Positions 15,651 through 48,949 of a stretch of 64,000 nucleotides of DNA are shown piece after piece (positions within the stretch are counted from its first letter, which is position 1; each line of letters opens with the position of its first letter). The notes beneath the pieces are model-generated. The model saw only the letters and a list, made by a program, of their open reading frames with translations, did no database searches and was not told the origin of the DNA. The stretch comes from Mustelus asterias (taxonomy: Eukaryota). Where the stretch lies: the NCBI RefSeq assembly GCF_964213995.1, contig NW_027590338.1, forward strand, positions 248,001 through 312,000, given 5' to 3'. The position numbers were made by a program, and so were the translations under genes.

Positions 15651-16552
15651 TCAGGGTCTAATGAGTTGAAGAATTGCAGTAAGGGGAGCTTTCAGCAGAT
15701 TTTTCAGCTGCTGTCTGAACTGAGTCTGTGTCACAGCATAAATGGCAGTGTTTGTACAGCAACTTGTGAGTTGGAGCATGAAACCCAATTCCATAACAAA
15801 ATAATGTAACCATACTGGGCTATAGCTCACATTTAACATCCGACTCCATATAGAATAAACCATGAATGTCGACCATAAGACGATGAAATTGGCTGAGATA
15901 ACAAACAGTAAAATGATGGATTTCCTTCGACTCTCCATCTCTGGGTCTCTGGGATTCTCTCCACTGCTGTGAGCCCGGAGTCTCCTGCGGGCTCTGCTGC
16001 TCATTAAAATGTGTCTGACGGTGAAAGCATTGAGCAGCAGAATCAGGACGAATGGGACACATGGGGTTAGAATGTAGTGGAGGAACTCGATTGTTCCCCA
16101 GACCGGAGAGTACATAACATGCCATGTGACCAAACAAAACCAGGGGTCGTTCTCCAGCCGATATCTATTTAATAACACAAAATACCAGAAAATGTTCTTT
16201 AAGCAGCTCAGCACCGTCACTGTTCCCAGAACCACAGCCGCCGATTTCTCGCTGCAATATTTACTTTTCAGCTTGGGGCAGCAAATGGCCACAAATCGAT
16301 CAAAGGTGAAAGTGACGGTGAACCAGACAGAACAGTCAGTGGCTGCATAAAGCAGGACGGCGTGGATGTTACACACGGGGACTGAGCTCAGGAAAGTAAA
16401 CAGTTCCTGATAAACAATAGGAATATGTCTCAATATCAGGTCGAGGATAACGACCAGCAGATCCCCCACTGACATGGCCACCAGGTAACGGGTGACACAG
16501 TTGGACAGACCACAGTTTCTGCTCATCAGTGTCACAATTGTGATTATGTTCA
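15651..16552 (-). CDS. GPR139/GPR142-like class A GPCR, gene 1, exon 2 (rest of TM1 through TM7 and C-tail)
   Basis: Acceptor cctgacAG|TG (phase 1). Motifs YLVAMSVGDLL, PVC, FTFDRFVAICC, PWFC, PCVPF, SCCTNTAIY; open to TAG. Spliced product 396 aa. Confidence 0.9.
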
Positions 16553-16689
16553 CTGTCAGGAAGGGAAATAAAGAATGAAATTAGATATGATTCAGGGAAA
16601 GAAGTTACCATTTGGACTGAGGATGGGTTGAAATAAAAAAGAATGTACACACATAAAATCACTTAAATCTTTTTTTTAAAATCCAGCAC

Positions 16690-16850
16690 GTCTTTTGCAG
16701 TGTGAGAGGAAAGTGGAGAACCGGAGGAAACCCACGCAGACACGGGGAGAAGGTCCAAACTCCACACAGACAGTGACCCAAGCCTGGAATTGAACCCATG
16801 TCCCTGACGCTGTGAGTGAGCAGTGCTAACCACTATGCCACCGTGCTGCA
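16690..16850 (-). mobile_element. tRNA-derived V-SINE (HE1-like), truncated
   Basis: A box TGGCATAGTGG, B box GGTTCAATTCC, V-domain CCCCGTGTCTGCGTGGGTTTCCTCC. Confidence 0.85.
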
Positions 16851-17489
16851 GTATGGTCGCGACACAGTTGTATACATTTGGGAAGAGATTTCCGCTGAGT
16901 ACACAACATTGACCCTCACTCAGCTACGGGTGAATAGCCCCTCTACCTTGTGGGGGATTTGGAGGGTAAGAAGGATGAGGGAGTAAACACTGACAGAAAA
17001 TCCAGACTGGAGTCCTGGAGCTGGTAATCTGTTGTCACTCAGACAGCTCACTGACAACCCCTGCAGCAGAGCTGGTAACAAACAGTGCTGGTTTCACCCT
17101 TTCCTCTGGACAATAGTAACAGTTGGAAGAGGGAGATCCCGATGCCTCAACAGTTCCGACTCTATTATACTTCCACAGGACTGGAGAGGAGACCACAGCA
17201 TTGTGACCACCGTTAGCACAACACAGGAAGAAACAGTAATCTCACACTCGATTGGCACAAAGCACAAGTACCAGGGTTTCCTTTCAACAGTGGGAGAAAG
17301 GTTCAGGGTTCAGTGAATAGCTACCGTCCTTAGTGCCCAGTGCGTTTGCTGCTCTCCCCCTATGGCCTGCTGGACCACTGAAGCTTAGTGAGTCCTCTCT
17401 CAGTAGAAAATTTGCTAATCTATGCACCAGGTAAGAAGAACTCAAACCAAGGCCGGTACCAAAGAAAGGCCAAGCAGGCTGACTTAATA

Positions 17490-19122
17490 ACTATTGTCCG
17501 GTGACTCTGACATTCAATATTATGAAATGCATCAAAAGGTTAGTCATGGCATGAATCAATTCCTGCCTCCCAGATTGCCTGGATACACTACAGTTCACCT
17601 ACTTCCGCAACAGGTCCACAGACGCCATCTCCCTGGCCCGACAGTCAACCCTGGAACACAGACTCGTGTTTATCGACTACAGCTCAGCGTTTAACACCAT
17701 TATTCTTACGAAACTCATGTCCAAAGTCTGTATCCTGGGGTTCGGCTCCTGCCTCTGCAATTGGATCCTGAACTTCCTGACGCGCAGACAGCAATAAATA
17801 AGGACAGTCAACAAAACCTCCTCCACAATCACCCTCAACAACAGTGCCCCACAAGGGTGTGTCCTCAGACCCTTACTATACTCCTTATATGCCAATGACT
17901 GAGTGGCCTAATTCCCGTCCAACTCTATTTCCCAGTTTCCTGATGACACCACGGAGTGGGTCGGATCTCAAACAACGATGACACCAAGAACAGGGAAGAG
18001 ACAGAGAATCTGGTGAAGTGGTGGGACCACAATTATCTCTTCCTCAATGTCAACAATGCAAAGGAGATCGTCATCGACTTCAGGAAGCAGAGTGGAGTAC
18101 ATGCCCTGTCTAAACAATGGGATGAAGTTGAAATGGTTGAGAGCATCAAGTTTGTATGGGTCCAGATCACCAGCAACCTGTCCTGGCCCCTCCACGACGA
18201 TCCCATAATTAAGAAAGCCGATCAACGCCCCTACCTTCTCAGAGGTCTAAGGACAATTGGCATGTCAGCTACGATTCTCTCCAACTTTTAGAGATGCACC
18301 ATAGAGAACTGTCTTTCTGGTTGTGTCACAGTTTGGTATGGCTCCTGCTCTGTCCAAAACTACACAAAACTTCAAAGCTTTATGAATGGAACTCAGTCCA
18401 TCACTCAAACCACCAATTGACACTGTCTCCACTTCCCGCTGCCTGGGAAAAGCAGCCAGGCTAATTAAGGACCCCGCTCACCATGGAGATAAACTCTTCC
18501 AACTTGTTCCGTCGGAAACTAAGATGAAAAAGTCTGAGGACATGTACCAACTGACTCATAGAATCATAGAAACATTATAGTGCAGAGGAAGGCCATTCGG
18601 CCCATTGAGTCTGCACCGACAACTATCCCACCTATGTCCTATCCCCTAAGTCCCATATGTACCCTGGTAATGTCTCTAACATACATATCCCGGGACCCTA
18701 ATGGGCAATTTTGCATGGCCCATCAACCTAAGCTGCATATCTTTGGACTGTGGGTGGAAACCAGAGCATCCGGAGGAAACCCACGCAGACCTATGAAGAA
18801 TGTACAAATTCCACACAGTGCTCCAAGCTGCGAATCGAACTCAGGTCCCTGTGAGACAGCAGTGCTAACCATTGTGCCATCATGCTGCCGACTCAAGAAC
18901 AGCTTCTTCTCTGCTGCCATCAGACATTTGAATGGACCACCATCGCATCATGATGATCTTTTTCTACACCTTAGCTATGATTGCAACATTACATTCTGCA
19001 CTCTCTCCTTCTCTATGTATGGTATGCTTTACCTGCATATCACTGAAGGAACAATACTTTTCACTGTATACTAATACATGTTACAGTAATCAATCAAATC
19101 AATTCAAATCAAATCAAATCAG
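17490..19122 (+). mobile_element. Degenerate non-CR1 LINE (Rex/Babar-like RT), interrupted by a SINE
   Basis: DYSSAFNTI, APQGCVL and xDDT remnants; 3' (AATCA)n tail. The same 3' end recurs at 56090-56362. Confidence 0.7.
18557..18888 (-). mobile_element. HE1-like V-SINE with CR1-derived tail
   Basis: A/B boxes, V-domain and CR1-type 3' tail; GACTCA duplicated at both junctions. Confidence 0.8.
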
Positions 19123-19129
19123 TCTTTCA

Positions 19130-19830
19130 CATCTCAAGCTGGAATAATGCACAATGAACAGCAGAGTGTGAGGAAGTGCAGAGGGCCAGAATGAATGTGG
19201 GGCGCATATATAAGGATCCCTGAAGGCAGTAAGACAGGTAGATCAGGTGGTTAAAACAACATATAGGATACTTGTCTTTAGCAGCTGCAGCATAGAATAT
19301 AAGAGGTGGGAGATTTTGATGGAAGTGTATAAAATGCTGGTTTGAGCAGAGCAAGAGAACTGTGTGCAGCGCTGGTCATCACACGACAGGAAGGATGTAA
19401 TTTTACCTTAGAGCAGAGACGGCTGGAGGGAGAGTGGGTGTAGTGGGTGGTGGTGGGGAACACTTTCAGGTCGGGAGACCTGAGTGATCTGTACAAAACT
19501 ATGTGGCACCAAGATAGGAAGAAAACTTCTCCTTTAGTAGAGGTGTCAATAACAAGTGGGGCGTGGATTTAAGGCAAAGGGCAGATTTTTGTGAGTATTT
19601 GAGGGAAAATGTTCCCATCCACAGGGTGCTGGGGTCTGCAGTTCACGGTCTGAAAGGATGGTAGAAGCGGGAACAACCACAAGAGGCATTTAGATCAGCA
19701 ACTCAAATGCCAGAGCATACAAGGCTGTGGATCGAGTGCTGGAAAATGGAATTCGATTGGATAGGTGTTTGATGACCAGTTCAGACATAATGGGCCGAAG
19801 GGCCTCATTTTGTGCGGTTAAAACTCTATG
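19130..19830 (+). mobile_element. Old CR1 3' fragment
   Basis: Degenerate CR1 C-terminus and ATGGGCCGAAGGGCCT tail motif. Confidence 0.65.
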
Positions 19831-20119
19831 GCTGTTAGACCACCCACAGCAGTGGCCACATCACTTGCAGCTCTTACAGCGCTGGCTGGGATACCGACCA
19901 CGTACCAAACTTCTGTGGTTGCAAATGCACAATTGCAGCCAGCAGTGAGCTGCCTGGTCTGAGAGAGAAATCTGTCAGCTCTCTGCTGCTGCAGCTCGCT
20001 TCAACACAGCAGCTACCCCCAGATAGTCCGGGGGTCCGCAGCACTTCGTGAGCAACCTCCGACCGGATATAGCCCCACCCCCACTACCTGGACCAATCAC
20101 CCACCTTCCTTCACACCAA

Positions 20120-20650
20120 TTGCATGCAGAGAGGCTGCGTGACCCCACTCCCTACCCCACTGTGCAGGCAGAGAGGCAGCGAGAGCCCCTCCCTCCCTCA
20201 CTGTGCACGCAGAGATACAGCGAGACCCCCTCCCTACCACAGTGTGCATGCAGAGAGGCAGCGACACACCCTCCCTAACCCACTGAGCATGCAGAGAGGC
20301 AGCGAGACCCCCTTCCTACCCCATTGTGCATGCAGAGAGGCAGCGAGACCCCCTCCCTAATCCACTGTCCAGGCAGAGAGGCAGCGAGACCCCCTTCCTA
20401 CCCCACTGTGCATGCAGAGAGGCAGCGAGACCCCCCTCCGTTCCCCAGTGTGCATGCAGAGAGGCAGTGAGACCCCCTCCCTACCCAACTGTGCACGCAG
20501 ACAGGCAGCGAGACCCCCTCCCTACCCGACTGTGCATGCAGAGAGGCAGCGAGACCCCATCCATAACCCACTGTGCGTGCAAAGAGGCAGCGAGACCCCT
20601 CTCCCTACCCCACTGTGCATGCAGAGAGGCAGCGAAACCCCCCTCCCTAC
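20120..20650. repeat. Minisatellite, ~41-42-bp unit (CCCCACTGTGCATGCAGAGAGGCAGCGAGACCCCCTCCCTAC), intronic in GPCR gene 1
   Basis: About 12-13 direct copies. Confidence 0.9.
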
Positions 20651-21469
20651 CGCACCAATCACTTGCAGAGTGTCAGTGGGACCCTCTGCCCTTCACTACG
20701 TTGAGAGTGGCAGCAAGACCAAACTACCTCAACAATCTCGAACAAAGTGGCAGCGGGGCCGCACTCCCTACTCCACCAATGACATGCAGCGTGGTATTGG
20801 GCCACCCTCCAAACCCGATCGGCCTGTTCCCCAAGTGCCAAGCTGCCTTCAGGCCCCGCCCCTGCAGGCCCCGCCCCTTCTGCTCCAGCCCCTGCAGGTC
20901 CCGCCCCTGCAGGCCCACTCCCTGGTACTGCCCGGTGAGCATTGCCCAAGGGGCACCTACCTTTGCCCTCGACCTTGCCCAGCGTCCTCAATGGTCTTTG
21001 GTTCTACTGGCGAAGTCATCATGACTGGTCCACGTACGTGGGGTCCAGCTGTTTTCCTCACGACACACAACCTCTCCCAGTGAGGCAAGCGTGCAAAAGC
21101 AAAGGCAAGCGTGCCGCACAATTCCATCCCAGGCTCGCTAATTTTATTTAAAATTGTTTTAAAATAAATTTAAATAATCTATTCAGCCTCTCGTCAGAAA
21201 TGGGCAGGAGGCTGAATCCGCTGCATATCCATTGCTGGTGAGGTTGCAAGAGGTGAGAAATCGGGCGTGGACCTGAGTTCTAGGCTGTTACAGAGTTTTA
21301 CTGCTCACCCTGTCATCAATAGACAGGAAGTAGCTGTAAACCCGCCCACCTCCCTTGTGTGTGTGTTTGTGTGTTTGTGTGTAAATCTGATTGCCTTTAT
21401 CAGCAAATGTGTGCATTTGTGTATGTGCGTCTAGGTGTGTCTGTGTTTGTGTTTCTGTGAATGTAGGAG

Positions 21470-21780
21470 GGTTTGTGGTGGTACAGCATTGTTGCCTCAC
21501 AGCACCAGGGGCCCTGGATCAATTCCAGGCTTGGCTACTGTCTGTACAGAGTTTGCACGGTCTCCCTGTGTCTGCGTGGTTCTCCTCTGTGTGCTCCGAT
21601 CTCCTCCCAAAATCTGAAAATTACTCTGTTTAGGTGCATTGGCCAAGATAAGTTCTCCCTCAGCGTACCCGAACAGGGGCTGAAATGTTCACAGTAACTT
21701 CAGGGGATTTTTACACTAACTTCACTCTAATGTTAATGTTTCCATACTTGTGACACTGATGAGTAATTTCAAACTTTAGA
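21470..21780 (+). mobile_element. V-SINE
   Basis: Degenerate tRNA head, V-domain and shared tail. Confidence 0.75.
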
Positions 21781-22281
21781 AAACATGTTCTCTCTCTGTG
21801 AGATCTTGCTGTGCACATATGACTAATAAAATGGATTCTGTGATCTGCTGACTGGGTGGGTGATTAGCAGTGAACTGGTGTTACGTGCAGAGGGTAAAAA
21901 TGATTCTGCCTCAATCTCTTATTCACGAACGAATAGTGTTTGAGATCACATGTCTATGGAAAGTCACAACACACAGAAGACATTTCAGCCCATAGGCCCT
22001 GAGCCAATTGTCAGTCGCTGAAAGAATTAATAACTGGATACAGAGATTCAACAGAAACAACAAGAGCAGCAAACCGTGTACAGTAAATTATAAGAAAATC
22101 AATACAGTTAAACAGCCTTTGTAGAATTAGGAACTGTACACAGGGGACAGGACCTTACAGCCTCACTCTTCCCCAAGCTGCCAAATCCCACCCGTGTTCA
22201 ACAGACCTTCCCATGCTCCGCCCCTCGTCTGCACCGATTCCCGTGGCGGTCGGGCCGGTACAATTCCAGCCAGGGACTTAC

Positions 22282-22570
22282 CCGGAACACCAACAATCGC
22301 TAGGAGGGGATAGTAAAAGTGTTGAATCGCCTTCAGCAGATATCGAATCCGATCAGCTGATGTTATCCACCAACCATCTGCAGTAAACCAAGAAATCCAA
22401 TGGAATAAACTTCTGTCCTTAACTGGAACATTCCAATCCATTGTTCCCAGATTCTGATCTATTGTTGAAACATTCCGGTTCATTGTTCCCAGATTCGGAT
22501 CCATTGTTGGAAGATTCCAATCCATTGTTCCCCGGATTCTGATCTCTCCTCTCCCTCCCTCTCTCTCCAT
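22282..22570 (-). CDS. GPR139-like GPCR gene 1, exon 1 (repeat-containing N-terminus plus start of TM1)
   Basis: ATG 22570 (several later in-frame Mets) ...FYYPLLAIVGVP G|GTAAGT. The phase-1 donor joins exon 2 in frame as GVP-V-NIIT; intron 16553-22281. Confidence 0.85.
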
Positions 22571-22859
22571 AGCCGCTGATCTCTGTTAGTGTCGGAGTTT
22601 CGGTCCCGCTGACTCAATGGGACAACACATTGAACGGAATCCCTTATTAATAGAAGAGGGAAATCCCTCCAGACACATTAATCGGATCCATGGAGACTCA
22701 CATCAATTCCAGTCACTAAACAAACAGCTTCACTTAACCCCCTTCAATCCGACACGTTTTATACCCAAAGTAGAACAGTTACAGCCTCGATGGGGTTTTG
22801 AGGGTCAGGGAGGTATGGAAAGTTGGAAATAATGGAGGATCAATATTAATTCGATACAG

Positions 22860-23660
22860 CAGAGATCACTCTGGTAGCGTTAATTTCGAGACAACGAGAA
22901 TGCAAAAGAAGGGGTGTACTGCTGAGGGTTTATAAGACACTGGTCTGACCGCATTCAGAATATTGTCAGCAATTTTGGTCCCCGTATCTAAGGAAGGATG
23001 TGCTGGCCTTGGAGAGGGTCCAGAGCAGGTTCACAAGAATGATCCGGGGAATGAAAGACTTGACGCAAGAGGAGCGTCTGAGGACTGTGGGTCCATACTC
23101 GATGCAGTTTGGAAGTATGCGAAAGGGGATCACATTGAAACTTACAGAATAATGAAAGGCCTGGATCGAGTGCACTTGGGGAAGATGTTTCCATTATTAG
23201 GGGAGACTTGGACCCGAGGGCACAGACTCAGAGGAAAGGGATGGCCCTTTAGAAATGTGATGTGGAGATGTCGGCGTTGGACTGGGGTGTGCGCAGTAGG
23301 AAGTCTCACAGCACCAGTTGCCCACTCACCTGATGAAGGAGCAGTGTTCCGAAAGCTGGTGATTCCAAATAAACCGGTGAGACTTCTTACTTTAGAACTG
23401 AGACGAGGAGGAATTTTTTCAGCTCGAGGGTGGTGAATCTGTGGAATTCATTGCCAGACAGGGCTGTGGAGGCCAGGTCATTGAATGTACTTAAGAAAGA
23501 GATAGATAGGTTCTTGACTGGTACAGCGATCAAAGGTTACAGGGAAAAAGCAGGAGAATGGGTTTGAGAAACTTATCAGCCAGAATTGAATGGTGCAGCC
23601 GGCTCGATGGGCCTAATGGCCAAATTCTGCTCCGATATCTTATTGTCTTATGGGTATCAT
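22860..23660 (+). mobile_element. CR1 3' fragment carrying a Penelope-type insert
   Basis: CR1 C-terminal coding remnants and tail; interrupted at 23255-23389. Confidence 0.8.
23255..23389 (+). mobile_element. 135-bp Penelope-type inverted element with hammerhead motif and 8-bp flanking duplication
   Basis: CTTTAGAA at 23247-23254 and 23390-23397. An inverted tail is followed by CAC-CTGATGA-A-GGAGC-AGT-GTTCC-GAAAGCT-G-GTGA (G at the cleavage position). Confidence 0.7.
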
Positions 23661-23829
23661 GGTTGTGGGTTTTGGATGAAGGTAACGTCAATCAGGGTTG
23701 CTATAGTCTGCTTAATCCAGGCTGTAGCAGATCGTATGTATAGCTCATGGACAGAACAACCTTAGTATGGGACTTCACACGGATCGATCTCTCAGCATTA
23801 CGTATAGTACAGTCTTAGCTCGGGTCACC

Positions 23830-24330
23830 AGAAAGAACTATCTCTCAGTGTTACGTACAGTGCAATCTGAGGCTTCAGATAGAACTATCTCTGTCCTATG
23901 TACAGTGCAATCTGAGGCTTAAAATAAAACTATCTCTCAGTGTTATGTCCAGTATAATCTTTGGCTTAGGATAGAACTATTTCTCAGTGTTATGTACAGT
24001 TCAATCTGAGGCATCAGATAGAATGATCTCTCAGTGTTATGTACAGTACAATCTGAGGCTACAGATAGAACTATCTCTCAGTGTAACGTCCAGTACAATT
24101 TGAGGCTTCAGATAGAACTATCTCTCAGTGTTACATACCGTACAATCTGAGGCTTCAGATAGAACTATCCCGCAGTGTTACGTGCAGTACAATCTGAGGC
24201 TTCAGATAGAACTATCTCTCAGTGTTACGTACAGTACAATCTGAGGCTTCAGTTAGAACTATCTCTCAGTGTTACGTACAGTACAAACTAAGGCTTCAGA
24301 TAGAACGATCTCTCAGTGTTATGTACAGAA
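23830..24330. repeat. Minisatellite, 47-bp unit (TAGAACTATCTCTCAGTGTTACGTACAGTACAATCTGAGGCTTCAGA)
   Basis: About 10 direct copies. Confidence 0.92.
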
Positions 24331-24399
24331 GAACCTGATCAAGAAGCTTCACATCAATCTTTCTCAGCATTTTCTATTGTGAGGTTGTAATGAGGCAAG

Positions 24400-25195
24400 G
24401 GTGACTTGAAGAGAGTGTGGGAGAAGGACACCGGGACACCTGAACAGAGTCAGCAGAACCTTGAGGAGAGTGTGAGAGGAGGACTCTGGGACACCAGGAC
24501 AGACAAGCAGTACCGCGAGGAGAGTGTGAGAGGGGTTACTGTGTCACCGGGACAGACAGTCAGCACCTTGAGGAGAGTGTGAGAGGGGACACTGGGTCAC
24601 CGGGACAGACAGTCAACACCTTGAGGAAAGTTTGAGAGGGGACACTGGGTTACCGGGACAGGCAAGCAGCACCTTGAGGTGAGTGTAAGAGGGGTACAGG
24701 GAGACACTGGGACAGACAGTCAGTACTTTGAGGAGAGTGTGAGAGGGGGACTCCAGAACAGACAAGCAGCACCTTGAAGAGAGTGTGAGAGGGGGACACT
24801 GAGACACCGGGACAGACAGTCAGCACCTTGAGGAGGGTGTGAGATGGGCACACTGGACAATGGGACAGACAAGCAGCACCTGGAGGAGAGTGTGAGAGGG
24901 GAGCACAGGGACAGACAGTCAGCACCGTGAGGAGAGTGTGAGCGGGGGACACTGGACAACAAGACAGACAAGCAGCACCTTGAGGAGAGTGGGAGAGGGG
25001 GACACCAGGACAGACAAGCAGCACCTCGAGGAGAGTGCGAGAGGGGGGCACTGGGACAGACAAGGAGCACCTTGAGGAGTGTGTGAGAGGGGGACACTGG
25101 GACACTGGGACAGACAAGCAGCACCTTGAAGAGACTGTGAGAGGGGGACACTGGGACAGACAGTCGACACCTAGAGGAGAGTGTGAGATGAGGAC
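24400..25195. repeat. Minisatellite, ~44-53-bp unit (GACAGACAAGCAGCACCTTGAGGAGAGTGTGAGAGGGGGACACTGG)
   Basis: About 16 direct copies of variable length. Confidence 0.9.
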
Positions 25196-25939
25196 ATAGA
25201 GGATTCAAGCTATTGGTAGAGTTGTGCAGCACTGGGACCGAGACCATTTGTTTATGGCCTGTGGTGCTGAGGATTCTCTTCAATATCGACTCCACAGTCA
25301 GGCGTCAGGGACACAACTCTTTGTTCCATCTGTTCACACAATGGTCCAAATATTGACTGCCCACTCTGGGAGAATCCCAACAACTCACCCCACACCTGAG
25401 ATCACATGGCCCGTTCACTTAAAGAATGCCCCAACATATATAACTCTCCTCCCGTGTAAATAATAACCCCCTCCTCACCATCCCCCCCGCCCCCCCACCC
25501 CCTGCCCCCCCACTCCCCCTTTACAGCAACAGCATTTGAAACCGTTTACGAACAATTGTACATTTTTCCCTTTTTACCTCATACAGGCTTGGTGCAGAAT
25601 CCACAGCATATTTACAATATAACACAACCCATAGTTCATCCCTCACCCTTACGTCCATCTCACATAGACCTGATCAGGGGGAAGACAATCTCTGGGGGTT
25701 GATGCCTGTGGACTGGAGCCAGTTTTAAGATCCTCTCTGCTGAGTATGGCCTTGATGAACCCACCAACGTTTGATCGTCTTCCCACCCGTCATCAGTAAC
25801 CAATGTCGAGTTCCCTGTCCCCTCCATGAGTGGAGGAGCTGTTGATTCCAGGCCTCCCTGGCCTCCCACATAATAGAACAGAGAGTATAGAAGGTGGCAA
25901 GAATCTAACCTCAGGCAGAGCAAAAAAGGTGACAAAAAT

Positions 25940-28340
25940 GGGAAGGGGGTGGTCAATGCAGGACTGCGGGTGTTGTACCTAAATGTGCACAGAATATGGA
26001 TCAAGGTAAATGAGCTTGTTGCGCACATTAAAATTGGCCGGTACGATGTTGTGGGCATCACAGAGACATGGCTGCAAGGGGATCAGGGCTGGGATCTAAA
26101 TATCCAAGGATAGGTGTCCTATTGGAAGAACAGGCAGATGGGCAAAGGAGGTGGGGTTGCATTGTTATTAAGGAATGGCGTTAAATCAATAGCAAGAAGC
26201 GACATAGGATCAGAAGGCATAGAATGTGGGTAGAGTTGAGGAAAAACAATGGTAAAAAATACCCTGATGGAAGTTATGTACAGGCCTCCAAGCAGTAGTC
26301 AGGATGAGGGGCAGAAAATAAATCTGGAGATAGAGAAGGCATATAAAAAGGCAATAGTTACAATAATTAATGGGGACTTCAATATCCAGGTGGTCTGGGA
26401 AAATCCGTTAGGTCGTGGATCCCAAGAAAAGGAATTTGTGGAATGTCTGAGAGATGGTTCTTTGGACCACCTTGTGACAGAGCCTACTGGGGAACTGGGA
26501 ATTCTGGATTTGGTGATGTGTAATGAGGCAGATTTGATTAGGGAACTTAAAGTGAAGTAACGCTGAGAGAGCAGTGACCACAATATGATAGAATTTACCC
26601 TGCAGTTTGAGAGGGAGAAGCTAGAATCAGATGCAAGGATATTACAATTAAATAGTGGTAACTACAAAGACATGAGGGAGGAGCTGGTTGGAGTTGATTG
26701 GAAAGGGAGCCTAGCAGGGGAGACAGTGGAACAGCAATGGCAGGAGTTTTGGGGGCTTATTCCCGAGGCACAACAGAAATTCATCCCAAGGAGGAGGAAA
26801 CCTGCCAAAGAGAGGATGAAGCGTCCATGGCTTACGAGGAAAGTCAAGGACAGCATAAAAGCAATATAATCAGTGGAGGCAGGGAGTGTCCCAGAGGACT
26901 GGAAAGTTGCTAATGTAACACCGCTGTTTAAGAAGGGAGGGAGGCAGCAGACGGGAAATTATAGGCCGGTTTGACTGACTTCGTTCATTGGCAACATTTT
27001 AGAGTCCATTATTAAATATGAGATTACGGAGTACTTGGAAGTGCATGATGAAATAGGACTGAGTCAGCACGGCATTGTCAAGGGGAGCTCATGTCTGACA
27101 AATCTGTGAGAGTTCTTTAGGAGGTAACAAGGAAGTTAGATAAAGGAGAACCAGTGGACCTGATTTATTTGGATTTCCAAAAGGCCTTTGACAAGGTGCC
27201 ACGTCGGAGCCTGTTAAAAAAATTAAGAGCCCATGGTGATAAGGGTAAGACCCTGGCATGGATAGAGGGTTGGTCGACTGGCAGAAGGCAGAGAGTGGGG
27301 ATAAATGGGTATTTTTTAGGATCGCAGCTGGTGACTAGTGGTGTGCCTTAGGGGTCGGTGCTGGGAACACAACTTTTCACAATACACATTAACGATTTGG
27401 AAGAACGAAATGAAGCCACTGTTGCCAATTTTGCAGATGATGGAAAGATATGTAGAGGGAGAGATAGTATTGAGGAAGCAGGGGGACTGCACAAGGACTT
27501 GGACAGGTTAGGAGAGTGGGCAAAGAAGTGGCAGATGGAATATAACGTGGAAAAGTGTGAGATTATGAACATTGGAAGGAGAAATGGAGGCATAGACTAT
27601 TTTCTAATTGGGGAAATGCTTAGGCAATCAGAAGCACAAACGGACTAGGGAGTCCTTGTTCAAGATTCTCTGAAGGTTAACGTGTAGGTTCAGTTCGCAG
27701 TCAGGAAGACAAATACAATGTTAGCATTCATGTCGAGAGGGCTGGAATACAAGAGCAGGGATGGACTTCTGAGGCTACATAAGGCTAGATTTGGAGCATT
27801 GTGAGCGGTTTTGGGCCCAGTCTCTGAGGAAGGATGTGCTGGCCTTGGAAAGGGTCCAGAGGAGTTTCACAAGAATGATCCCTGGAATGAAGAGCTTGTC
27901 GTATGAGGAACGGTTGAAGACTCTGGGTCTGTACTCGATGGAGTTTCGATGGATGAGGGTGATCTTATTGAAGCTTACAGGATACTGCGAGGCCTGGATA
28001 GAGTGGACGTGGAGAGGATGTTTCCACTAATAGGAAAAACTAGAACCAGAGGGCATAACCTCAGGCTAAAGGGACGGTCCTGCAAAACGGAGATAAGGAG
28101 GAATTTCTTCAGCCAGAGAGTGGTGAATCTGTAGAATTCGTTGCCACAGAGGGCTTTGGAGGCCAGGTCATTGAGCATCTTTAAGACAGAGATAGATGGG
28201 TTCTTGATCAATAAAGGAATCAAGGGTCATGGGGAGAAGGCAGGAGAATGGGGATGAGAATCATATCAGCCATGATTGAATGATGGAGCAGACTCGGTGG
28301 GCCGAATGGCCTAAATCTGTTCCTCTGTCTCAAGGTTTTA
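25940..28340 (+). mobile_element. CR1 LINE ORF2, degenerate with internal deletion
   Basis: VGITETWL, YRPP, GDFN, DFQKAFDKV, FADDGK; several stops. Confidence 0.9.
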
Positions 28341-28349
28341 TGACGAGAG

Positions 28350-28780: not shown

Positions 28781-28876
28781 AGTGTTGCTGAGGTCATGGA
28801 GTAGCGGGGAAGTGATGGGTTCATGCTGGTTGGGTTGGTGGGGATCAGGTGGTGGGAGAGGCAGGTGTGAGTGGAA

Positions 28877-35425: not shown

Positions 35426-35529
35426 ATTCATAGAGGTTTACAACATGGAAACAGGCCCGTTGGCCCAACTTGTCCACACCTGCAGTTTTTACCAATAAGC
35501 GAGTTCAAATTGCCCACATTTGGCCCATA

Positions 35530-39100: not shown

Positions 39101-40030
39101 AGTCGTAGCAAATTTCCCTCCCAGGATATTGGTGCTCCTCTGGTTCAGGTGCACCCCATCCTGTTTGTACAGGTCCCACCTTCCCCAGAATGTGTTCCAA
39201 TTATCCATGTATCTGAAACCCTCCCTCCTACACCATCCCTGCAACCACATGTTTAACTGCACTCTCTCCCTGTTCCTCAACTCGCTATCACGTGGCACCG
39301 GTAACATACCAGAGATGACCACATGTTCTGTCTTGGCTCTCAGCTTCCAGCCCAGCTCCCGAAATTCCTGTTTTAAATCCCCGTCTCTTCTCTAACCTAT
39401 GTCGTTGCCACCAATGTGTTCCACGACTTGTGACTGTTTCCACTCCCCCTTAAGAATCCGGAAGACACGGTCCGAGACGTCACGGACCCTGGCATCCGGC
39501 AGGCAACATACCATCCTCGAGTCTCTTTTCCTGCCACAGAACCTCCTATCAATCCCTCTAACTAACGAGTCCCCAATAACTATTGCCCTTCCGCTCTCCC
39601 CCTTACCCTCCCGAGCCACAGAGACGGACACAGTGCTGGAGATCCTCTCACTGCGGCTCACCACTGGTCCGTCGTCCCCCTCAACCATACCCAAAGCGGA
39701 ATACTTGTTGCTAAGGGGAACGACCACAGGGGATCCCTGCACTGACTGCTTCCTCCCAGCCCCTCTCACCGTCACCCATCTATTTTCATTCCTCGGAGTA
39801 ACTGTATCCCTAAAGCTTCTGTCTATGGCCACCTCCGCATCCCTAATGATCCTAAGTTCATCCAACTCCAGCTCCAGTTCCCTAACACGGTTTTGGAGGA
39901 GCTGCAGATGAGTGCACTTCCCACAGGTGTAATCATCAGGGACACTGACGTCGTCCCTCACCTCAAACATAGTGCAAGAGGAACATAGCACTGCCTGCAC
40001 ACCCATCCCCTCTAGATACCTTGCCAGTAC
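36101..40030 (-). mobile_element. Near full-length CR1 LINE: ORF1 (Cys knuckle/coiled coil + SGNH esterase) and ORF2 (EN + RT)
   Basis: ORF1 has CSSC...CGKC, the coil LQNRVRELELELDEL, and GDS, GxND and DGVH esterase blocks. ORF2 has FNARS and TETW, and a 717-aa open RT segment at 36183-38336; a few disablements near 38350, 38645 and 39392. Confidence 0.95.
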
Positions 40031-40059
40031 CAGGTCGCGTGATGCTTGGGGATTAATCA

Positions 40060-41019
40060 TTATTTAGAGTGATCATTGGGATTGTGTCTTTTTACAGTGA
40101 TCTGTGGGCATTGTGTCATTATTGAGAGTGTTCCTTGGTGATTGCGATGTTATTCAGAGTGACACTTGGGGATGGTGTCACTATTGAGAGTGATCCTGGG
40201 GATTATGTGACTATTTCGTGTGAACCTTGGGGATTGTTTCACTATTTAGAGTGATACTTGGGGATTGTGTCACTGATTAGAGTGATCCTTGAGGATTGTG
40301 TCATTATTTAGAAAGCTCCTTGGGGTTCTGTCAGTATTTACAATGATCCATGGGAATTGAGTCATTAATAACAATAATCTATGGGGATTGTATCACGCTA
40401 CAGGGTGATCCTTGTGGATTGTGTCACTATTAAAAGTAATCCTTGAGGATTGTGTCGCTTTTCAGCGTGATCGTTGGGGAATGTGTCACTATTTAGAGTG
40501 TTCTTTGGGGTTCGTGTAACTATGTGCAATGATCCTTGGGCATTGTGTCTTTATTTAGAGTGATCCTTGGGGATTGTGTCTCTATTTAGAGTGATCCTTG
40601 TGGATTGTGTCACTATTTAGAGTGATCTTTTGGGATTGTGTCACTATTTAGAGTGATCTTTTGGGATTGTGTCACTATTTAGAGTGATTCTTGAGGATTG
40701 TATTACTATTTAGAGTGATCCTTGGGGATTGTGTCACTATCTAGAGTGATCCTTGAGGATTGTGTCACTATTTAGATTGATCCTTGGGGATTCTGTCACC
40801 AGTTATAGTGATCCTTGGGGACTGTGTCACTATTTAGAGTGATCCTTCGGGATTGTGTCAGTATTCGGAGTGATCCTTTGGGATTGTGACACTATTTACA
40901 GTGATCCTTGGGGAGTGTGGCGCTATTTACAATGATCCTTGGGTATTGTGTAACTATTTGGAGTGACTCTTGTGGATTGTGTCACTAATTAGTGCTTACC
41001 TTGCAGATTGTGTCACTAT
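40060..41019. repeat. Minisatellite, 31-bp unit (TTGGGGATTGTGTCACTATTTAGAGTGATCC)
   Basis: About 30 copies, more homogeneous toward 40550-40900. Confidence 0.93.
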
Positions 41020-43780
41020 AGAACATAGAAAACCTACAGCACAAACAGGTCCTTCGGTCGACAAGTTGCGCCGAACAATTTCCTTCCCTTCTCGGCGCAT
41101 CTATAACCCTCTATCTTACCAACCTCCATGAACCTATGCAAAAGTCTCTTAAAAGACTCTATCCAATCCGCTTCCACCACCACTACCAGCAGCCGATTCT
41201 ACGCACCCACCACCCTCTGAGTGAAAAAGTTACCCCTAACATCTCCTCTATACCTACTCCCCAGCAGCCTAAACCTGTGGCCTCTCGTGACAACCATTTC
41301 AGCCCTGGGTAAAAGCCTCTGAGAATCCACTCTATCAATACGTCTCAACATCTTATACACGTCTAACAGGTCACCTCTCATCCTTCACCTCTCCAAGGAG
41401 AATAGACCTAGCTCTCTCAACCTATCCTGATAAGGCATACCACTTCATCCTGGCAACATCCTCGTAATTCTCCTCTGCTCCCGTTCTATGGCTTCCACAT
41501 CCTTTCTGTAATGAGGCGACCAGAACTGGGCACAGTACTCCAGGTGAGGTCTGACCAGGGTCCTATACCGCTGCAGCATTATCTCCCGATTTCTAAACTC
41601 AATTCCTCTATTGATGAATGCCAGTATGTCATACCTTCTTAACCACAGCCTTTACCTGCTACGCCGCTTTGAGCGTCCTATGAACCCGGACCCCAAGATC
41701 CCTCTGTTCTTCCACACTGCCAAGCGTCTTACCCTTAATATCCTATTCTTCCATCCTAGTCGACCTGCCAAAATGAACCACCACACACTTATCTGTGTTG
41801 AAGTCCATCTGCCACTTCTCCGCCCAGTCATGCATCTTATCAATGTCTCATTGCAACTGCTGACATCCCTCTACACTATCCACAACACGTCCAACCTTTG
41901 TGTCATCAGCAAACTTGCCAACCCATCCTTCCACTTCCTCATCCCGGTCATTTATAAAAATCACAAAGAGCAAGGCTCCCACTGGTGACCGACCTCCACT
42001 CTGAAAAAGACCCATCTACAACCACTCTTTGCCTTCTGTGGGCAAGCCAGTTCTGAATCCACAAAGCAACGTCCCCTTGTATCCCATGCCCCTTCACTTT
42101 CTCCATAAGCCTTGCATGGGGCACCTTATCAAACACCTTACTGAAATCCATATAAACCACATCTACCGCTCTCCCCTCGTCTACGTGTCTAGTCACACCT
42201 TCAAAAAACTCAATCAGGCTCGTAAGGCATGATCTGCCTCGGACAAAGCCGTGCTGGCTACTTCTGATCATACTATTCCTTTCCAAATGTTCACAAATCC
42301 TGCCTCTCAGGATCTTCTCCATCAACTTACCTACCACTGAGGTTAGACTCACTGGTCTATAATTTCCTGGGCTATTCTTCTCCCTGTCTTGAATAAGGGA
42401 ACTACATCCGCCATCCTCCAATCCTCTGGAACCTCTCCCGTCTCCATTGACAACGCAAAGATTATCGCCAGAGGATCAGCAATCTCTTCCCTCGCCTCCC
42501 ACAGTAACCTGGGATACATCCCATCCGGTCCCGGCGATTTATCTAACGTGATGCTTTTCAACAGCTCCAACACATCCTCTTTCCTAATGCCCACATGCTC
42601 AATCTTCTCAGTCCACTGCAAGTCTGCACTGCAACGACCAAGATCCTTTTACACTGTGAATACTGAAGCAAAGTATTCATTGAGTACCTCTGCTATTTCT
42701 ACCGGTTCAATGCAGACTTTCCCACCGTCACATTAGATAGGTCCTACTCCTTCACATCTTATCCTCTTGCTGTTCACATACTTGTAGAATGCCTTGGGGT
42801 TTTCCTTTATCCTGTCTGCCAAGGCCTTCTCATGTCCCCTCCTGGCTCTTCTAATTTCCCTCTTTAGTTCCTTCTTATTAGTCGTATACTCTTCTAGATT
42901 TCTAACATTACCCAGCTCCCTCAACGTTTTGTCGGCTTTTCTTTTCTTCCTGACTAAATCCGTTACAGCTTTCGTGCACCACGGTTCCTGTAACCTACCA
43001 TAACTCCCCTGTTGCACCGGAACATTGCTGTGCAGAGCTCCAGACAAATTTTCCTTGAACATTTGCCACATTTCTTACGTACATTTCCCTGAGAAAACCT
43101 CCTTCCAATTTATGCCTCTAATTTCCCGCCTAATAGCATCATAGTTGTCCTTACTCCAGATAAACACTTTCCTAGCTCCGTTGATCCTATCGCTCTCCAA
43201 TGGTAGCGTAAAGGAGATAGAGTTTTGATCACTATCACCAAAATGCTCTCCCACTGATAGATCTGACAACTGCCCAGGTTCATTCCCTAATATCAAATCA
43301 AGCACAGCCTCTCCTCTTGTAGGCTTATCCACATATTGCGTCAGGAAGCTCTCCTGTGCACACTGAACAAACTCCTCTCCATCTAAACCCCTTACCCTAG
43401 GGATATTCCAATCGATATTTGGGAAATTAAAATCTCCCATCACGACCACTCTGTTATTATCACATCTCTCCAGAATCTGCTTCCCAATCTGCTCGTGCAC
43501 ATCTCTGCTACTATTGGGCGGCCTATAGAAAACACCCAGTAAAGTTACCGACCCCTTCCTGTTCCTAACCTCCACCCACAGAGATTCCGTAGACATTCCT
43601 TCCGTGGCATCCATCTTTTCTACAGCTGTGACACTATCCCTGATCAACAGTGCCACTCCCCCACCTCTTTTGCCTCCTTCTCTGTCCCTCCTGAAACATC
43701 TGAAACCCGGCACTTGAAGTACCCAGTCCTGACCCTGAGATAACCAAGTCTCTGTAATGGCCACCACATCACAGTTCCAA
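41018..43780 (-). mobile_element. CR1 LINE ORF2, frameshifted
   Basis: VVAITETWL, GDFNFP, KSPGPDG, QHGF and RT motifs; tail at 41018. Confidence 0.93.
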
Positions 43781-44102
43781 GAGTGCTGAGACAGGGAGGG
43801 AGGGAGAACCCAGCCCATCCTAGTGCTCTAACAGAGTCTGTCTCTCCTCCTCCGTTCACTTAATGATGCTCTGCGTGATGCGGCCAGGTGGCGCAGGAGG
43901 AAATGGAAAATACATCCGAAAACACTATCTCCTGTGAAAACCCAGTTACCTCAATCGGAACATGATGACAGCAGCGGAATTGCACTAGGCACGAGCTCTT
44001 CTCCTGCTGTAATCTCGATGTCAACCCGTTTCTCACTTTACTGCAACAGATGACAGCAGTAAATAGAACTGCTATTCCAGAGGTTTTGTTGGGAGAGTCA
44101 GA

Positions 44103-44520
44103 ATGGATCCCATGTCGTCCCGTCATCTCATTATATTGTGGTTTGTACTCGGTACGTATGGCCGTATGTACTTATGTCATACTTCCATCACAACCCAACG
44201 TTCATTTTTATTTCAGGGAGGATTCGCGCAGATTCGGTATCACAATCCAAGACAGAACTCTACGTGACTGAAGGAGACAGTGTGATTACAGATTGTACTT
44301 ATAAAACAAATCTCTTTAATCCTGATCTGTATTGGCACAGACAGCACACAAACTACTTTCTGAGTTTTAGTTTACTTCGGGATAACAGTCGAAGAACAAT
44401 CACAGTTTTTACCAAGGGATGATTCGAGGCTGGTCAGAGTAAGACAGAAAAGAGATTTCCCTTAAAGATCATTCGAACAGGAATCCAGAACACTGCCTTC
44501 TATTTCGATGGGTTGAAAAT
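44103..44520 (+). pseudogene. T-cell receptor alpha/delta-type V gene segment pseudogene (leader + V exon)
   Basis: Leader MDPMSSRHLIILWFVL G|GTACGT (44103-44151), 65-nt intron, then V exon from 44217: DSVSQSKTELYVTEGDSVITDCTY...LYWHRQ...KG*FEAG...FPLKI...NTAFYFDGLK. TGA at 44420 falls in the GRF motif, and the second Cys is lost (YFD). Confidence 0.85.
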
Positions 44521-44559
44521 CGCAGTGGTTTAAAACTTATCTGTCTCTGAACAAAAACC
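44521..44559 (+). promoter_or_regulatory. Recombination signal sequence, 23-bp spacer
   Basis: Heptamer CGCAGTG (one change from CACAGTG, in the critical CAC), exactly 23-nt spacer, perfect nonamer ACAAAAACC, directly abutting the V exon. Confidence 0.9.
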
Positions 44560-44846
44560 TCAGGGCCGACGAACAGGCGTTCTCTCAAGATCACAGGAAC
44601 CTTCGTTGCTCTGTAAGTGACTGTCCTGTTCAGAATCTGTTAGTCCTGCTTCTGAGTTACAAAGTTTTAGGGTCAAGGCTCACTCCTGAGACTTCAGCCT
44701 GTAATCCAGGCTGTTGCCGAGTGGCAGCATCGAGGGCGTGCCAGCAATGGTTGTCATATTTCGCATCAGACCTTAATCTTAGGGACACACACTTCATTTC
44801 TGTAAAATATCCCAGACTTCTTTTTCAGAAAATCATTGCAGATTTC

Positions 44847-45620
44847 ATAGAATCATAGGACCATACAGTGCAGGAGATGCCCTTCGGTCCATCGAGTCTG
44901 TACTGACACGCTAGAAACATTGACGTTCCACTTACCAGCAATTGGCCCATAGGCTTGAATGTTATGATGTGCCAAATGTTCATCCAGGTAATTTTTAAAG
45001 GATGTGAGGCAACTCGCCTCCACCACCCTCTCAGGCAAAGCATTCCAGACTGTCAACACCCTCCAGTTAAAAAAGAAATTCTCACATCCCTCCTAAACCT
45101 TAGCCCCCTCACCTTGAATCTGTGTTCCCTCGTGACTGATCCTTCAAATAAGAGGAACAGCTGCTCCCTATCCACTCTGTCCATGGCCCTTATAACCTTG
45201 TACACCTCGATCAGGTCGCCCCTCAGTCTTTTCTGCTCCAACGAGAACAACACAAGCCTATGGAAACTCTTCATAACTTAAATGTTCCATCCCAGGCAGC
45301 ATCCTGGTGAAACTCCTCTGCATCCCGTCCAGTGCAATCATATCCTTTCGATAATGTGTCACCCAGAACTGCACACAATACTCTAGCTTGGGCCCTTACC
45401 AACTCTACACAACTTTCACATGACCTCCCTCCTTTTTTAATCTATGCCCCGATTGATAAAGGCAATTGTCCCATTTGCCTTTTTCAGCACCCTACTAACA
45501 TGCCCTTTCGTCTTCAGAGATCTGTGCAGAACCACGCCAAGGTCCCTTTGTTCCACTGAACTTCCTGGTGTCATGCCATTAATTAAATATTTCCTTGTCA
45601 ACTTATTCCTTCCATCTGTC
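44847..45620 (-). mobile_element. CR1 3' fragment
   Basis: LFSLEQKRLRGDLIEVYK; tail at 44847. Confidence 0.85.
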
Positions 45621-46766
45621 CTGGGCCTGTCATTAGCTCTCAAGCAGCATCACTGAAAATATCAGATAGATTGTTGTTGTTGGAATTTGTTGTGCGAGTT
45701 GTGGCCAGAGAGGCGCCGACAACAATGATTTCAGCAACAATAGCGGCAATATTAGCTTCAACAGCAATTGTGACAACGAGAGTCAAGCATGCTGGAATTG
45801 ATGTTCAAGTTATAATGAAAAACAGATTCAATTCATAAAGTTGCTGCAAGCTGTGACCAGAGAGAACACTTACCGTTAAAATGATTTAGCTTAATTGACT
45901 TTCATCAAGCTTACTCCTCCAAATATGATTTACAAATCTTCACTATAACAAAACTTTAGATGACCGAGTTTTCTGTGGGAAAATCAAATAAATACAATGC
46001 ATGATGGCAATTATTTCACCCAAAACAATAAAACTAAAAGTCCACGATGAATTCTGTGCGTGAAAATTGTTTCGCTTGCTGTTTGTAGATGGGAAAATGG
46101 GTTCATTGTATCACTTGTTATAGCATATTAACCTCAGTTATCATTTGTCATTTCTGTGAAATCCATCCTGTGTTCGGTGAGTGTGAGAGCAAAACGGTCA
46201 TAGTGACTTCAGATATTTCAGATGTATATCTAGTAAAAAGAATTAGGGAGTAGGAAAGTATTTTGATGATCACTCATGATCAAAATGAAGGGCGAAGTAG
46301 ACTCAAAATGCTGAATGGCTTACTCATGCGTCTATTTTCTGTGTCCAAAACTCTCAGAAGGAAATAAGTGCCGAACTAATCTGATATCTGTGAGCAAGAA
46401 GTAATTGGGCACCTGGCAGAAATCGGAAGAGACGGTCTTTGAATTTGAGATTAGAGCCCAGATCAATATCTCCCCTCACCTGCTGTTCTTGATGTAGACA
46501 CAAAGGCATGGTTTGTGGGAGGTGGATGTAACCATGGAATGAGCAAGCAGAGTTTGGCTCAGTATATAATGGAATCATCCCCCTTGCCAATGGTGCAATG
46601 TGGAGGTACCCAACAGTGAGCGAATCTGTTTGTTCACCGGCCTGTAACTAAGGTGCAGGCTCTAACTTAATTATTCCTCTGGAGACGCTCACTCAGAATA
46701 AATGTGAGACGCTATGAAACCACCGCAGAGCTCAGGTTTAAGCTTCATTTCACTTTCTGGGAGAGG

Positions 46767-46836
46767 ATGCATGGACCAGCAAAAGGTCTCTTCTTCGCCA
46801 TTTTTTATCCCATTCTCGCTGCCATTGGTGTTCCTG
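46767..46836 (+). CDS. GPR139-like GPCR gene 2, exon 1
   Basis: MHGPAKGLFFAIFYPILAAIGVP G|GTAGGT, phase 1, the same junction as gene 1; in-frame upstream TAA at 46668. Not in the ORF track because it is too short. Confidence 0.82.
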
Positions 46837-48059
46837 GTAGGTGAAAGATCCCAAATAAGTCTCATGACTTGAAATGTATGGCGTTGCATAAACATTAGCC
46901 TTTTATTGTTGAAAATTCGGTTTTATTCGAATGTAGTAAAATGCGATCTAGTGTTTTCAGTGTTTTGCACGATAAAGTCTATAAAGTGACCTATATTTCA
47001 TCCACTGGTATGTACAGTCTCAGAAAATGAGCTATCGCAATCTAATAATTCAATTAGATGCATTGACATAGAACATTCATTCACTGCTTACATGAACCTA
47101 TGCTGTGACCTCCAGCAGTTAGTAATCGTTGATTTGTAGTGAGGCGGCACTGGGCTGCCCACATCGTTACTGAGGTTTTAAGGTTGAATTATTGAAACTT
47201 TTGAAAAAGGTGTGGGGGTTATGCATTATGCATTTTGTCTTGTGTTAGTAAGTCTGGTAAATTTCGGATAATTATATTTTTAATCACTAGCTGTATGCAT
47301 GCAGATATGGCAAGGCGAATATGACTTGTCCATATCTAGCTTTCATTTGAGAAGGCGATGTAGCGTTTGTTTCTTCAGACACTCGGATAACTAGAATGGG
47401 GATACTTCACAAGACTTTAACAAATCAACTTTATACTGACCGACAAAATGACTTAGAATTGTTCAACGAATTTATTTTCTAAGGATCGTCCTGAAGCACA
47501 AAGGGAAAGTTTAGTCTTTGAAAGAAGAAGTTCCAGAGGTTAGGGTCTCGGCACGTAAAGGCAAACTGAAAAGATCAAATCAGGGTCATGGAAGTCCACA
47601 CTCGGAGGTATGGTGTGATCTCAGATAGTTGTAGCATGTTATCAAAATCTGGAAAGGCGAGATTATGGAGGGATTTATAATTCGAAGGACGAGATTATAA
47701 AAAACAGAGACGCAGCCTGAATGGCAGCCGATAGGGCTGATGGGTGGATGGGATTGGTACGAATAAGAACAACGACAGCAAATTTTCTGAGAATCTGAAA
47801 TTTGATAGTTATCTGAGGGGATCAACTCAGTGACCAGAGGGCAGAGTTACAATTTGGACTGATTGCAATGTCTCCTGATTTAAAATAACTTGAATCCAGT
47901 TTTGAATGTCGGACCATTGCCAAAGACTTTGCAATCACTGGAGTCTGGAGTTGGCAAAGTGAAGGATGAGAATGTTTTCAGTAACTGATTGGATGGCGCA
48001 GCAGCTGGTGTTTCGAGCGCTCTCGGTAACACATCTCTCTGTCTCTTTCTATCTCACAG

Positions 48060-48949
48060 CCAACTTGGTGACGATCGTAATCTTATCCCGAGGACGGTGC
48101 GGACTGTCACGGTGCATCACCTACTACCTGATCGCGATAGCATTGACTGATTTCCTTGTCATCATCACCGCCATAATCCTCAACCGGATTGGCCGCATCT
48201 ACTTTCAGAACAGCGTCCTGTCTACCACCCCCGCATGCACACTCAGCGCTCTGCTGGTCTATTTTGCCCGGGATATGTCCGTCTGGTTGACAGTGGCTTT
48301 CACCATCGACCGTTTTGTGGCCATCTGCTGCCAGGGCCTGAAGGCCAGATACTGCACCGAGAAAGCAGCATTGCTGGTTATAGGAATAGTCTGTGCCTTG
48401 AGCTGTGTCAGGAATGTCCCTTTCTACTTCACTTACCAGCCCTTGTACACCCTGGACGGGGTGCCCTGGTTCTGTGCTGTTAAGTCCAGCTATTACACGG
48501 TGCCCGCCTGGCAGGCCTATGACTGGCTGGACCACATCTTAACTCCGTTTCTCCCGTTCCTGCTCATCCTGTTTCTTAACGCGCTGACCGTTAAACACAT
48601 CTTAGCGGCCAGCAGAGCCCGCAGGAGACTCCGGGGCACGGAGAGTCACGGGGACCCAGAGATGGCCAACCGCAAGAGGTCCATCATCCTGCTCTTCGCC
48701 ATCTCCCTCAGCTTCCTCCTCCTCTGGGTCACCTATGTCGTACATTTCCTCTATGTGCGGATTACAGGTGAGGGCTACCGCACCAGCCTGGATTTCAAAG
48801 ACCCACGGTACATCCTTCAGGAAGCAGCAAACATGCTCCAGCTAGTCAGTTCCTGCAACAACGTCTTCATTTACACAGTCGCCCAGACCAAGTTCCGAGA
48901 GGACCTGAAGAAGGTTCTGCTATGCCCCTTCACCACGCTCACTGGCTAA
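48060..48949 (+). CDS. GPR139-like GPCR gene 2, exon 2
   Basis: Acceptor tctttctatctcacAG|CC. Motifs ANLVTIVIL, YLIAIALTD, PAC, FTIDRFVAICC, PWFC, PFLPF, SSCNNVFIY; open to TAA. Spliced product 319 aa. Confidence 0.92.

Follow-up and report, generated by a model that had tools for sequence, protein, structure and literature searches.

GPR139 and GPR142 (PDB 7vug, 9m42) are the described receptors with which the genes treated here are most readily compared. Passages of PMC8807744 list E3.32, F3.33, W166, H5.43, W6.48, R6.51 and N7.38 as the contacts of the GPR139 agonist. Rinne et al. 2019 gave the name GPR210A/B to GPR139/142-related orphans of coelacanth, gar and fishes; in its accessible part (PMC6504862) that paper treats neither cartilaginous fish nor any expansion. 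The elasmobranch antigen receptor complex (AgRC; Flajnik et al. 2025, consulted in part as PMC12227049) mixes IgM miniclusters with alpha/delta V segments of the T-cell receptor (TCR) and has UrIg2 as a marker. In the sections available, cartilaginous fish are described as poor in G-protein-coupled receptors (GPCRs; PMC8455134), and the catshark is credited with only 65 known chemoreceptor genes (PMC6368271) and a large olfactory surface (PMC10116579). This report concerns two GPCR genes, A and B, in a 64,000-nucleotide stretch of Mustelus asterias (NW_027590338.1, positions 248,001 to 312,000; hereafter the window), whose contig is C306 in the genome-wide contig numbering. Judged by sequence, they represent two branches of an elasmobranch-wide receptor family. 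The extracellular loops of the A branch are under positive selection above a nearly invariant deep pocket; the B branch is under purifying selection and is linked to immunoglobulin (Ig) and TCR genes. The exons are as follows.

22282..22570, minus strand: gene A exon 1, a long N-terminus and the first half of transmembrane helix 1 (TM1), from ATG to a GT donor after GVP, phase 1
22421..22525, minus strand: N-terminal repeat in gene A exon 1, a 21/42-bp repeat coding 7/14-aa units, as read from the sequence
15651..16552, minus strand: gene A exon 2, TM1-TM7 and helix 8, Pfam 7tm_1, member of a 737-copy branch
46767..46836, plus strand: gene B exon 1, a very short N-terminus and the first half of TM1
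48060..48949, plus strand: gene B exon 2, Pfam 7tm_1, from the conserved branch whose copies are set among IgM clusters and TCR V segments

By sequence, both genes are intact class A (rhodopsin-like) GPCRs. An earlier note on this DNA had proposed two intact two-exon genes of 396 aa (A) and 319 aa (B) with a phase-1 intron after GVP, and this structure is confirmed, with the named motifs present. The single intron is of GT-AG type in both, the products share 47% identity (149/315 aligned residues), and the exon-2 products match Pfam 7tm_1 with E-values of 3.5e-18 (A) and 9.8e-22 (B). An exon homologous to gene A exon 1 is present in 15 of the 20 paralogous loci fetched. Gene B exon 1 matches annotated catshark and basking shark proteins and is present upstream in 16/20 paralogous loci, and gene B exon 2 is 86% identical to a catshark protein. 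One unit of the gene A repeat carries an N-glycosylation sequon; the A-type repeat is old, and its number varies between paralogues and between sharks. Gene B has a near-identical counterpart at NCBI, a protein that carries the label Mustelus asterias; this model (P0001) runs into the intron and skips exon 1 (46767-46836), which makes its TM1 wrong. The best 120 matches of each gene, where named, are from sharks, skates and rays under the NCBI name 'probable G-protein coupled receptor 139', a label derived from the best hit.

The family is large. An exact degenerate motif occurs at no fewer than 1,692 places in the genome (control 0), with clusters on contigs C4, C5, C8 and elsewhere among the first 100 of these, and a 59-nt TM3 motif of gene A occurs at 737. 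Among the first 100 A-motif places, 79 are on the small scaffolds C27-C67 and 12 on C71. Protein searches returned 5,954 and 5,754 first-look candidates. The 131 candidates scored for gene A are all 86-100% identical to it, and 129 lack a stop. Exon 2 is open in 25 of 30 loci chosen by the A motif alone (23 under a strict test) and in 17 of 20 loci hand-picked from other clusters. These figures are assembly copy counts and possibly include haplotype duplicates. Intact relatives of both branches occur across sharks, and B-like genes also in skates and rays. The proposal that the two genes belong to a lineage-expanded receptor family is supported.

Selection in the A branch was analyzed in 43 copies, after removal of two duplicates, a copy carrying a stop, another carrying a deletion and the 7 loci not flagged intact. 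The loops were defined from a predicted structure and the codon model was purpose-written. The ratio of nonsynonymous to synonymous rates (dN/dS) reaches 3.0 in the loops (likelihood-ratio test statistic, LRT, 43.6) and 1.3 in the helix tops; it is 0.63 for the core and 0.53 for the inside. Site model M2a beats M1a with an LRT of 688 and places 8.8% of sites at dN/dS 11. The outer face holds 19 of the 24 selected sites, the charge and size changes there are radical, and 42 of the 43 copies have distinct outer faces. Tree-free counts of nonsynonymous to synonymous differences are 63:11 in the loops versus 57:36 elsewhere (p 0.0009), and the tree-free loop ratio on whole-exon synonymous sites is 1.9-2.6 versus about 0.5 elsewhere. 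Among 11 young copies, divergence is 9.4% for outer-face DNA, against 2.4% for the intron and 1.8% for the remainder of the exon, with region borders that were set by eye with the alignment in view and later replaced by model-based borders. In the deep pocket, 8 of 11 positions are invariant in 43/43 copies, and pocket positions differ between subfamilies. A diversified ligand-facing surface is present in the A branch and between subfamilies, not within the B branch, and the suggestion of a functionally uncharacterised family with a diversified ligand surface is supported.

The B branch shows a different pattern. Its dN/dS is 0.16-0.24 with no positively selected class, and 20/20 close B paralogues are intact, a sample biased by having been taken from best matches. 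Together with the loop and tree-free results in the A branch, these values show that the genes do not evolve neutrally. Among B copies at least 70% identical, 37/40 are on contigs with an IgM CH4 match and 16/40 are within 30 kb of one, whereas 6/131 A-branch copies are on IgM-bearing contigs and none is within 30 kb of an IgM CH4. On C71 taken by itself, 5 of 14 B copies are within 30 kb of an IgM CH4 versus 1.35 expected (p 0.008). The family as a whole had been thought to be linked to Ig/TCR clusters; the linkage is real for the B branch, but it does not extend to the A branch, and large clusters of the family lie on other chromosomes.

By position, the B branch lies within the antigen receptor complex, its genes being interspersed between IgH clusters and TCR alpha/delta V segments. 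Both in the window and on C71 there is the same mix of IgM miniclusters and TCR alpha/delta V as in the AgRC, but interleaved B-type receptors are not mentioned in the parts of PMC12227049 available, and the text and supplements covered contain no match to GPR or G-protein terms. The accession numbers of B homologues in the white shark differ by 27-44 from that of UrIg2, a circumstantial hint that the linkage of B to the antigen receptor complex is conserved. Elsewhere in the genome, a dense cluster of Ig constant domains (G000:C13:60.06-61.33 Mb and C185), about 36-41% identical to IgM CH4, is probably another Ig isotype or a light-chain cluster.

Many A copies are arranged in head-to-head pairs 84-129 kb apart, with 9 such pairs versus 6 tail-to-tail and 7 tandem pairs among close neighbours. 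An inverted array of a 42-bp repeat is centred in 6 of the 7 head-to-head pairs examined and in 0/2 tail-to-tail pairs, and it is 15-17 kb long in the two units fully read. The array encodes the receptor N-terminal repeat unit, but its frames are broken; a giant repeat N-terminus encoded by the satellite is ruled out by these broken frames, the longest being 362-406 aa. The satellite may be a fold-back site of amplification or a donor for changes in the N-terminal repeat. Such arrays were seen at G000:C51:185000-204000 and G000:C299:365000-381000, and also on C27-C32, C42 and C15, inverted between head-to-head A-type genes; a 33-letter satellite unit has 1,759 exact matches. A-type units share 96-99% identity across 9-13 kb blocks with long interspersed nuclear elements (LINEs) and satellites. 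The amplicon scaffolds come after C26 in assembly order. Gene A of the window has no 42-bp array and sits in a small sub-branch on Ig-bearing and related contigs. Tandem repeats lie at window positions 20290-21020, within gene A, and 24650-25300, upstream of it, and a 41-bp unit recurs in the introns of C51 paralogues.

The alignment shows that the activation motifs DRF, W6.48, N7.49 and Y7.53 are kept. Both genes had been said to lack the TM6 proline and the NPxxY proline of TM7, and P6.50 and P7.50 are indeed absent; the missing TM7 proline is no special trait, as it is also absent in true GPR139 and GPR142 (NFFLY). The TM6 proline is kept by some family members. The predicted structure of an 85% identical A-type protein (pLDDT, the predicted local distance difference test, 82) has seven helices, helix 8 and a hairpin in extracellular loop 2 (ECL2), and the nearest solved folds are mostly peptide receptors. 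Among the agonist contacts of GPR139, A keeps H5.43 and W6.48 and B keeps W6.48 and N7.38. Since E3.32, W166 and R6.51 are lost in both genes, Trp/Phe-type amino-acid sensing like that of GPR139 is not supported.

The shark family belongs to the GPR139/GPR142-related lineage, because it shares the TM1 intron position with these genes and, of the solved structures, it is human GPR139 that it matches best by sequence (E 3.6e-9). It resembles GPR139 and GPR142 in the class A fold, the phase-1 intron, W6.48, the missing TM7-motif proline and, in the A type, H5.43. It differs in the lost agonist contacts, in a TM3-ECL2 cysteine pair that GPR139 lacks, in DRF and CC after TM3, and in having more than 1,000 copies versus one each. 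A GPR139 motif search of the genome gave two matches, on C23 and C12, with translations typical of GPR139 and GPR142. The window genes are 28-29% identical to GPR139/GPR142, and the true GPR139 and GPR142 form their own clade with 100% support in the Shimodaira-Hasegawa-like approximate likelihood-ratio test (SH-aLRT). All trees are quick IQ-TREE runs without bootstrap. Genes A and B are ruled out as GPR139/GPR142 orthologues by the separate true genes, their own clade and the low identity.

In the same trees, the sister of the shark family is an amphibian gene of which frogs, salamanders and a caecilian each have one copy per species, and which has a relative in sturgeon. A coelacanth gene and a teleost gene come next outward, followed by amphioxus and then GPR139/142. 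The shark, amphibian, coelacanth and teleost genes cluster to the exclusion of GPR139/142 with 96-97% SH-aLRT. The lineage shared by the shark family and its amphibian sister is probably the one named GPR210 in bony fish. Among these genes, the amphibian and sturgeon one stands closest to the shark family. The amphibian sister gene (P0415 and relatives, including Xenopus tropicalis and sturgeon) carries the NCBI label GPR139, yet is distinct from GPR139. The amphibian/sturgeon gene keeps P6.50, and the three salamander proteins in the alignment carry Lys at both 6.51 and 6.55.

The remaining features of the window are pseudogenes and one rearranged block.

1..1300, plus strand: C2H2 zinc-finger pseudogene, zf-C2H2 match, fingers spread across three frames
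44103..44559, plus strand: TCR alpha/delta-type V pseudogene with leader, intron, V exon with a stop, and 23-bp recombination signal sequence with an altered heptamer
61884..63780, minus strand: IgM constant-region pseudogene (CH3, CH4, secretory tail), C1-set matches
43807..49353, strand not given: block of V pseudogene and gene B, in the opposite orientation to its copy on contig C88 (blastn)

The IgM pseudogene has lost the first CH3 Cys and has a stop before the tail Cys when compared with an intact copy on the same contig. The TCR V pseudogene has, besides its stop and altered heptamer, lost its second Cys; an intact paralogue finds its best single-domain matches in TCR delta V chains. 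A TCR V of the window type accompanies 8/8 of the closest gene B copies, and the pseudogene is co-duplicated with gene B. Genes A and B had been described as the only undamaged genes among a decayed zinc-finger gene, TCR V and IgM. The decay of those three stands; the word 'only' needs qualification, since a LINE at window 50710-53328 (plus strand) still codes for reverse transcriptase in an open frame of 873 aa and, 45-60 kb past the window end, at G000:C306:356500-371300, there is an IgM minicluster that looks intact (VH, CH2-CH4 seen, full tail). The LINE insertion is recent or polymorphic, because window 51040-53416 is missing from a 99.8% identical copy on contig C127, which matches window 42.7-64 kb.

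The head-to-head arrangement of A and B, as originally described, is present, but the start codons are 24 kb apart. Window 15.4-41 kb is 98-99% identical to contig C88, where A and B stand in tandem. Because the same pair is tandem on C88 and the V-B block is inverted in the window, the layout is the product of a junction and a local inversion and not of a shared promoter. A bidirectional promoter between A and B is ruled out by the distance, the LINE-filled spacer and the inversion.

Four sequencing runs guessed as RNA have contigs that cover gene A exon 2; none of the 15 listed joints is the exon 1-exon 2 splice (253 more joints are on record), and one run covers the intron too, so DNA or pre-mRNA is possible. 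Four runs compared with gene B give only short pieces of distant relatives. No family member is among the cell-type markers in part of the bamboo shark immune single-cell table (PMC11372145). A literature search that left subscription papers largely outside found no published account of the shark family, which appears only under automatic NCBI names. The term GPR139 is not found in the texts of PMC8455134, PMC11979771, PMC12227049, PMC10620051 and PMC10116579 or in the readable supplements of PMC11372145, PMC12227049, PMC10529500 and PMC5278576, and passages of PMC7677710 gave no match to other terms. The ESM Atlas search returned only the shark family itself and generic 7tm clusters. Genes A and B have no Pfam match to the known olfactory or taste families (OR, TAAR, ORA, V2R, T1R, T2R); they are related instead to GPR139-like and invertebrate-type receptors.

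Other vertebrate GPCR families known to reach such a size are chemosensory, and we therefore lean, tentatively, towards a chemosensory-type repertoire for peptide-sized outside cues and away from a GPR139-like Trp/Phe sensor. The openness of most sampled loci, the selection on the outer face above a nearly invariant pocket, the retained activation motifs and cysteine pair and the peptide-receptor-like folds speak for this reading, as does the low number of known chemoreceptor genes in the catshark, whose olfactory surface is large. In an A-type copy, the fixed deep pocket would hold a ligand core common to the copies and the loops would read the variable parts of the ligand, and B-type receptors would bind a conserved ligand. 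Both types may signal through Gq or Gi by analogy with GPR139, and each sensory cell would express few copies. The linkage of B to Ig and TCR would likely reflect co-duplication within that region and would not require an immune role. The family is large and clustered and contains pseudogenes, and it resembles the OR, TAAR, V1R/ORA and T2R repertoires in its compact class A genes, clustered birth-and-death arrays and variable ligand surfaces. It differs from them in its GPR139-related descent, in having 7tm_1 alone as best Pfam match, in being known here from genes alone and, in the A type, in the N-terminal repeat stalk and the inverted amplicon units.

Several points weigh against this reading. 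Peptide ligands are a soft prediction, because many class A receptors score about equally well in the fold search. Taken on synonymous sites of the loops themselves, the tree-free loop ratio reaches only 1.15 for all 43 copies and 1.64 for 34 young ones. Site incompatibility in the A copies is high (0.32), meaning heavy homoplasy or gene conversion, by which the tree-based dN/dS is probably inflated. A site class at dN/dS 11 is typical of host-pathogen conflict as much as of smell. Several contigs are 99.8% alike, and copy counts may contain haplotype duplicates. No GPCR is among the top 50 genes in the available part of a catshark brain-and-olfactory library (PMC11979771), a weak objection where copies are sparsely expressed.

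The main rival, possible but rather doubtful, is that the family instead performs germline immune or barrier surveillance: A-type receptors on leukocytes or mucosal cells would detect peptides of microbes or parasites that change quickly, and those of the B type would be part of the antigen receptor complex. The 8.8% of A sites in the fast class, with their radical charge and size changes, would fit such a role, as would the interleaving of B genes with IgM and TCR V (37/40 on IgM contigs, and the excess on C71) and the closeness of the white shark accessions to UrIg2. However, the branch that is positively selected is mostly unlinked to Ig/TCR (6/131) and the branch that is linked is conserved, and the part of the bamboo shark table covered has no member among its markers (PMC11372145). 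A still bolder extension, which we consider unlikely, is a germline-encoded anticipatory recognition system of about 1,000 intact GPCR genes, a third non-self arm beside Ig and TCR. It would combine an amplicon-driven hypervariable branch, engaged in an arms race against foreign peptides, with a conserved one resident in the antigen receptor complex from early elasmobranchs onwards, and frogs would still have the single-copy ancestor. Mammalian testis genes occur in amplicons, which the inverted gene pairs of about 100 kb resemble, and rapid surface divergence suits gamete recognition; a reproductive recognition family, with its pairs expressed in sperm or reproductive tract and shaped by sexual selection, is nevertheless improbable, since many older clusters, among the matches listed, are plain tandem arrays on large chromosomes and nothing tested links the amplicon scaffolds to a sex chromosome.

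The A-type units, alike over blocks rich in LINEs and satellites, could also be passengers in satellite-rich segmental duplications that are intact only through youth, and among the runs recorded as RNA none gives a confirmed spliced transcript. This passive amplification is largely refuted by the selection tests and is very improbable: the outer-face DNA diverges about 4x faster than the intron while the rest of the exon is slower, the B-type dN/dS is low, and both branches have intact relatives across sharks, the B-like also in skates and rays. Least credible of all is that the genes are aromatic amino-acid sensors descended as orthologues or simple duplicates from GPR139/GPR142. The best solved-structure match, the intron position and the NCBI naming would agree with this, but the true genes are separate in their own clade, the identity is 28-29% and the contacts E3.32, W166 and R6.51 are absent.

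Three findings are new here: that the family divides into an amplicon branch under positive selection and a conserved one linked to Ig/TCR, that inverted units are centred on a satellite, and that amphibians have a single-copy sister gene. The shark receptor repertoire is real and large and apparently undescribed in the literature. A 20-tissue nurse shark RNA set, named in the part of PMC12227049 available, could place the expression of the family, and through the single-copy relative in Xenopus tropicalis the ancestral ligand could be approached in the laboratory. One orphan family with at least 1,692 copies, most of the sampled ones intact, contrasts with the GPCR-poor picture of cartilaginous fish and the count of about 65 chemoreceptor genes in the portions of PMC8455134 and PMC6368271 consulted. 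If the family is truly immune, it would be a new kind of variable receptor; if it is truly sensory, the account of shark smell and taste would change. It is likely, from the genes found, that sharks have a large overlooked set of chemical sensors.

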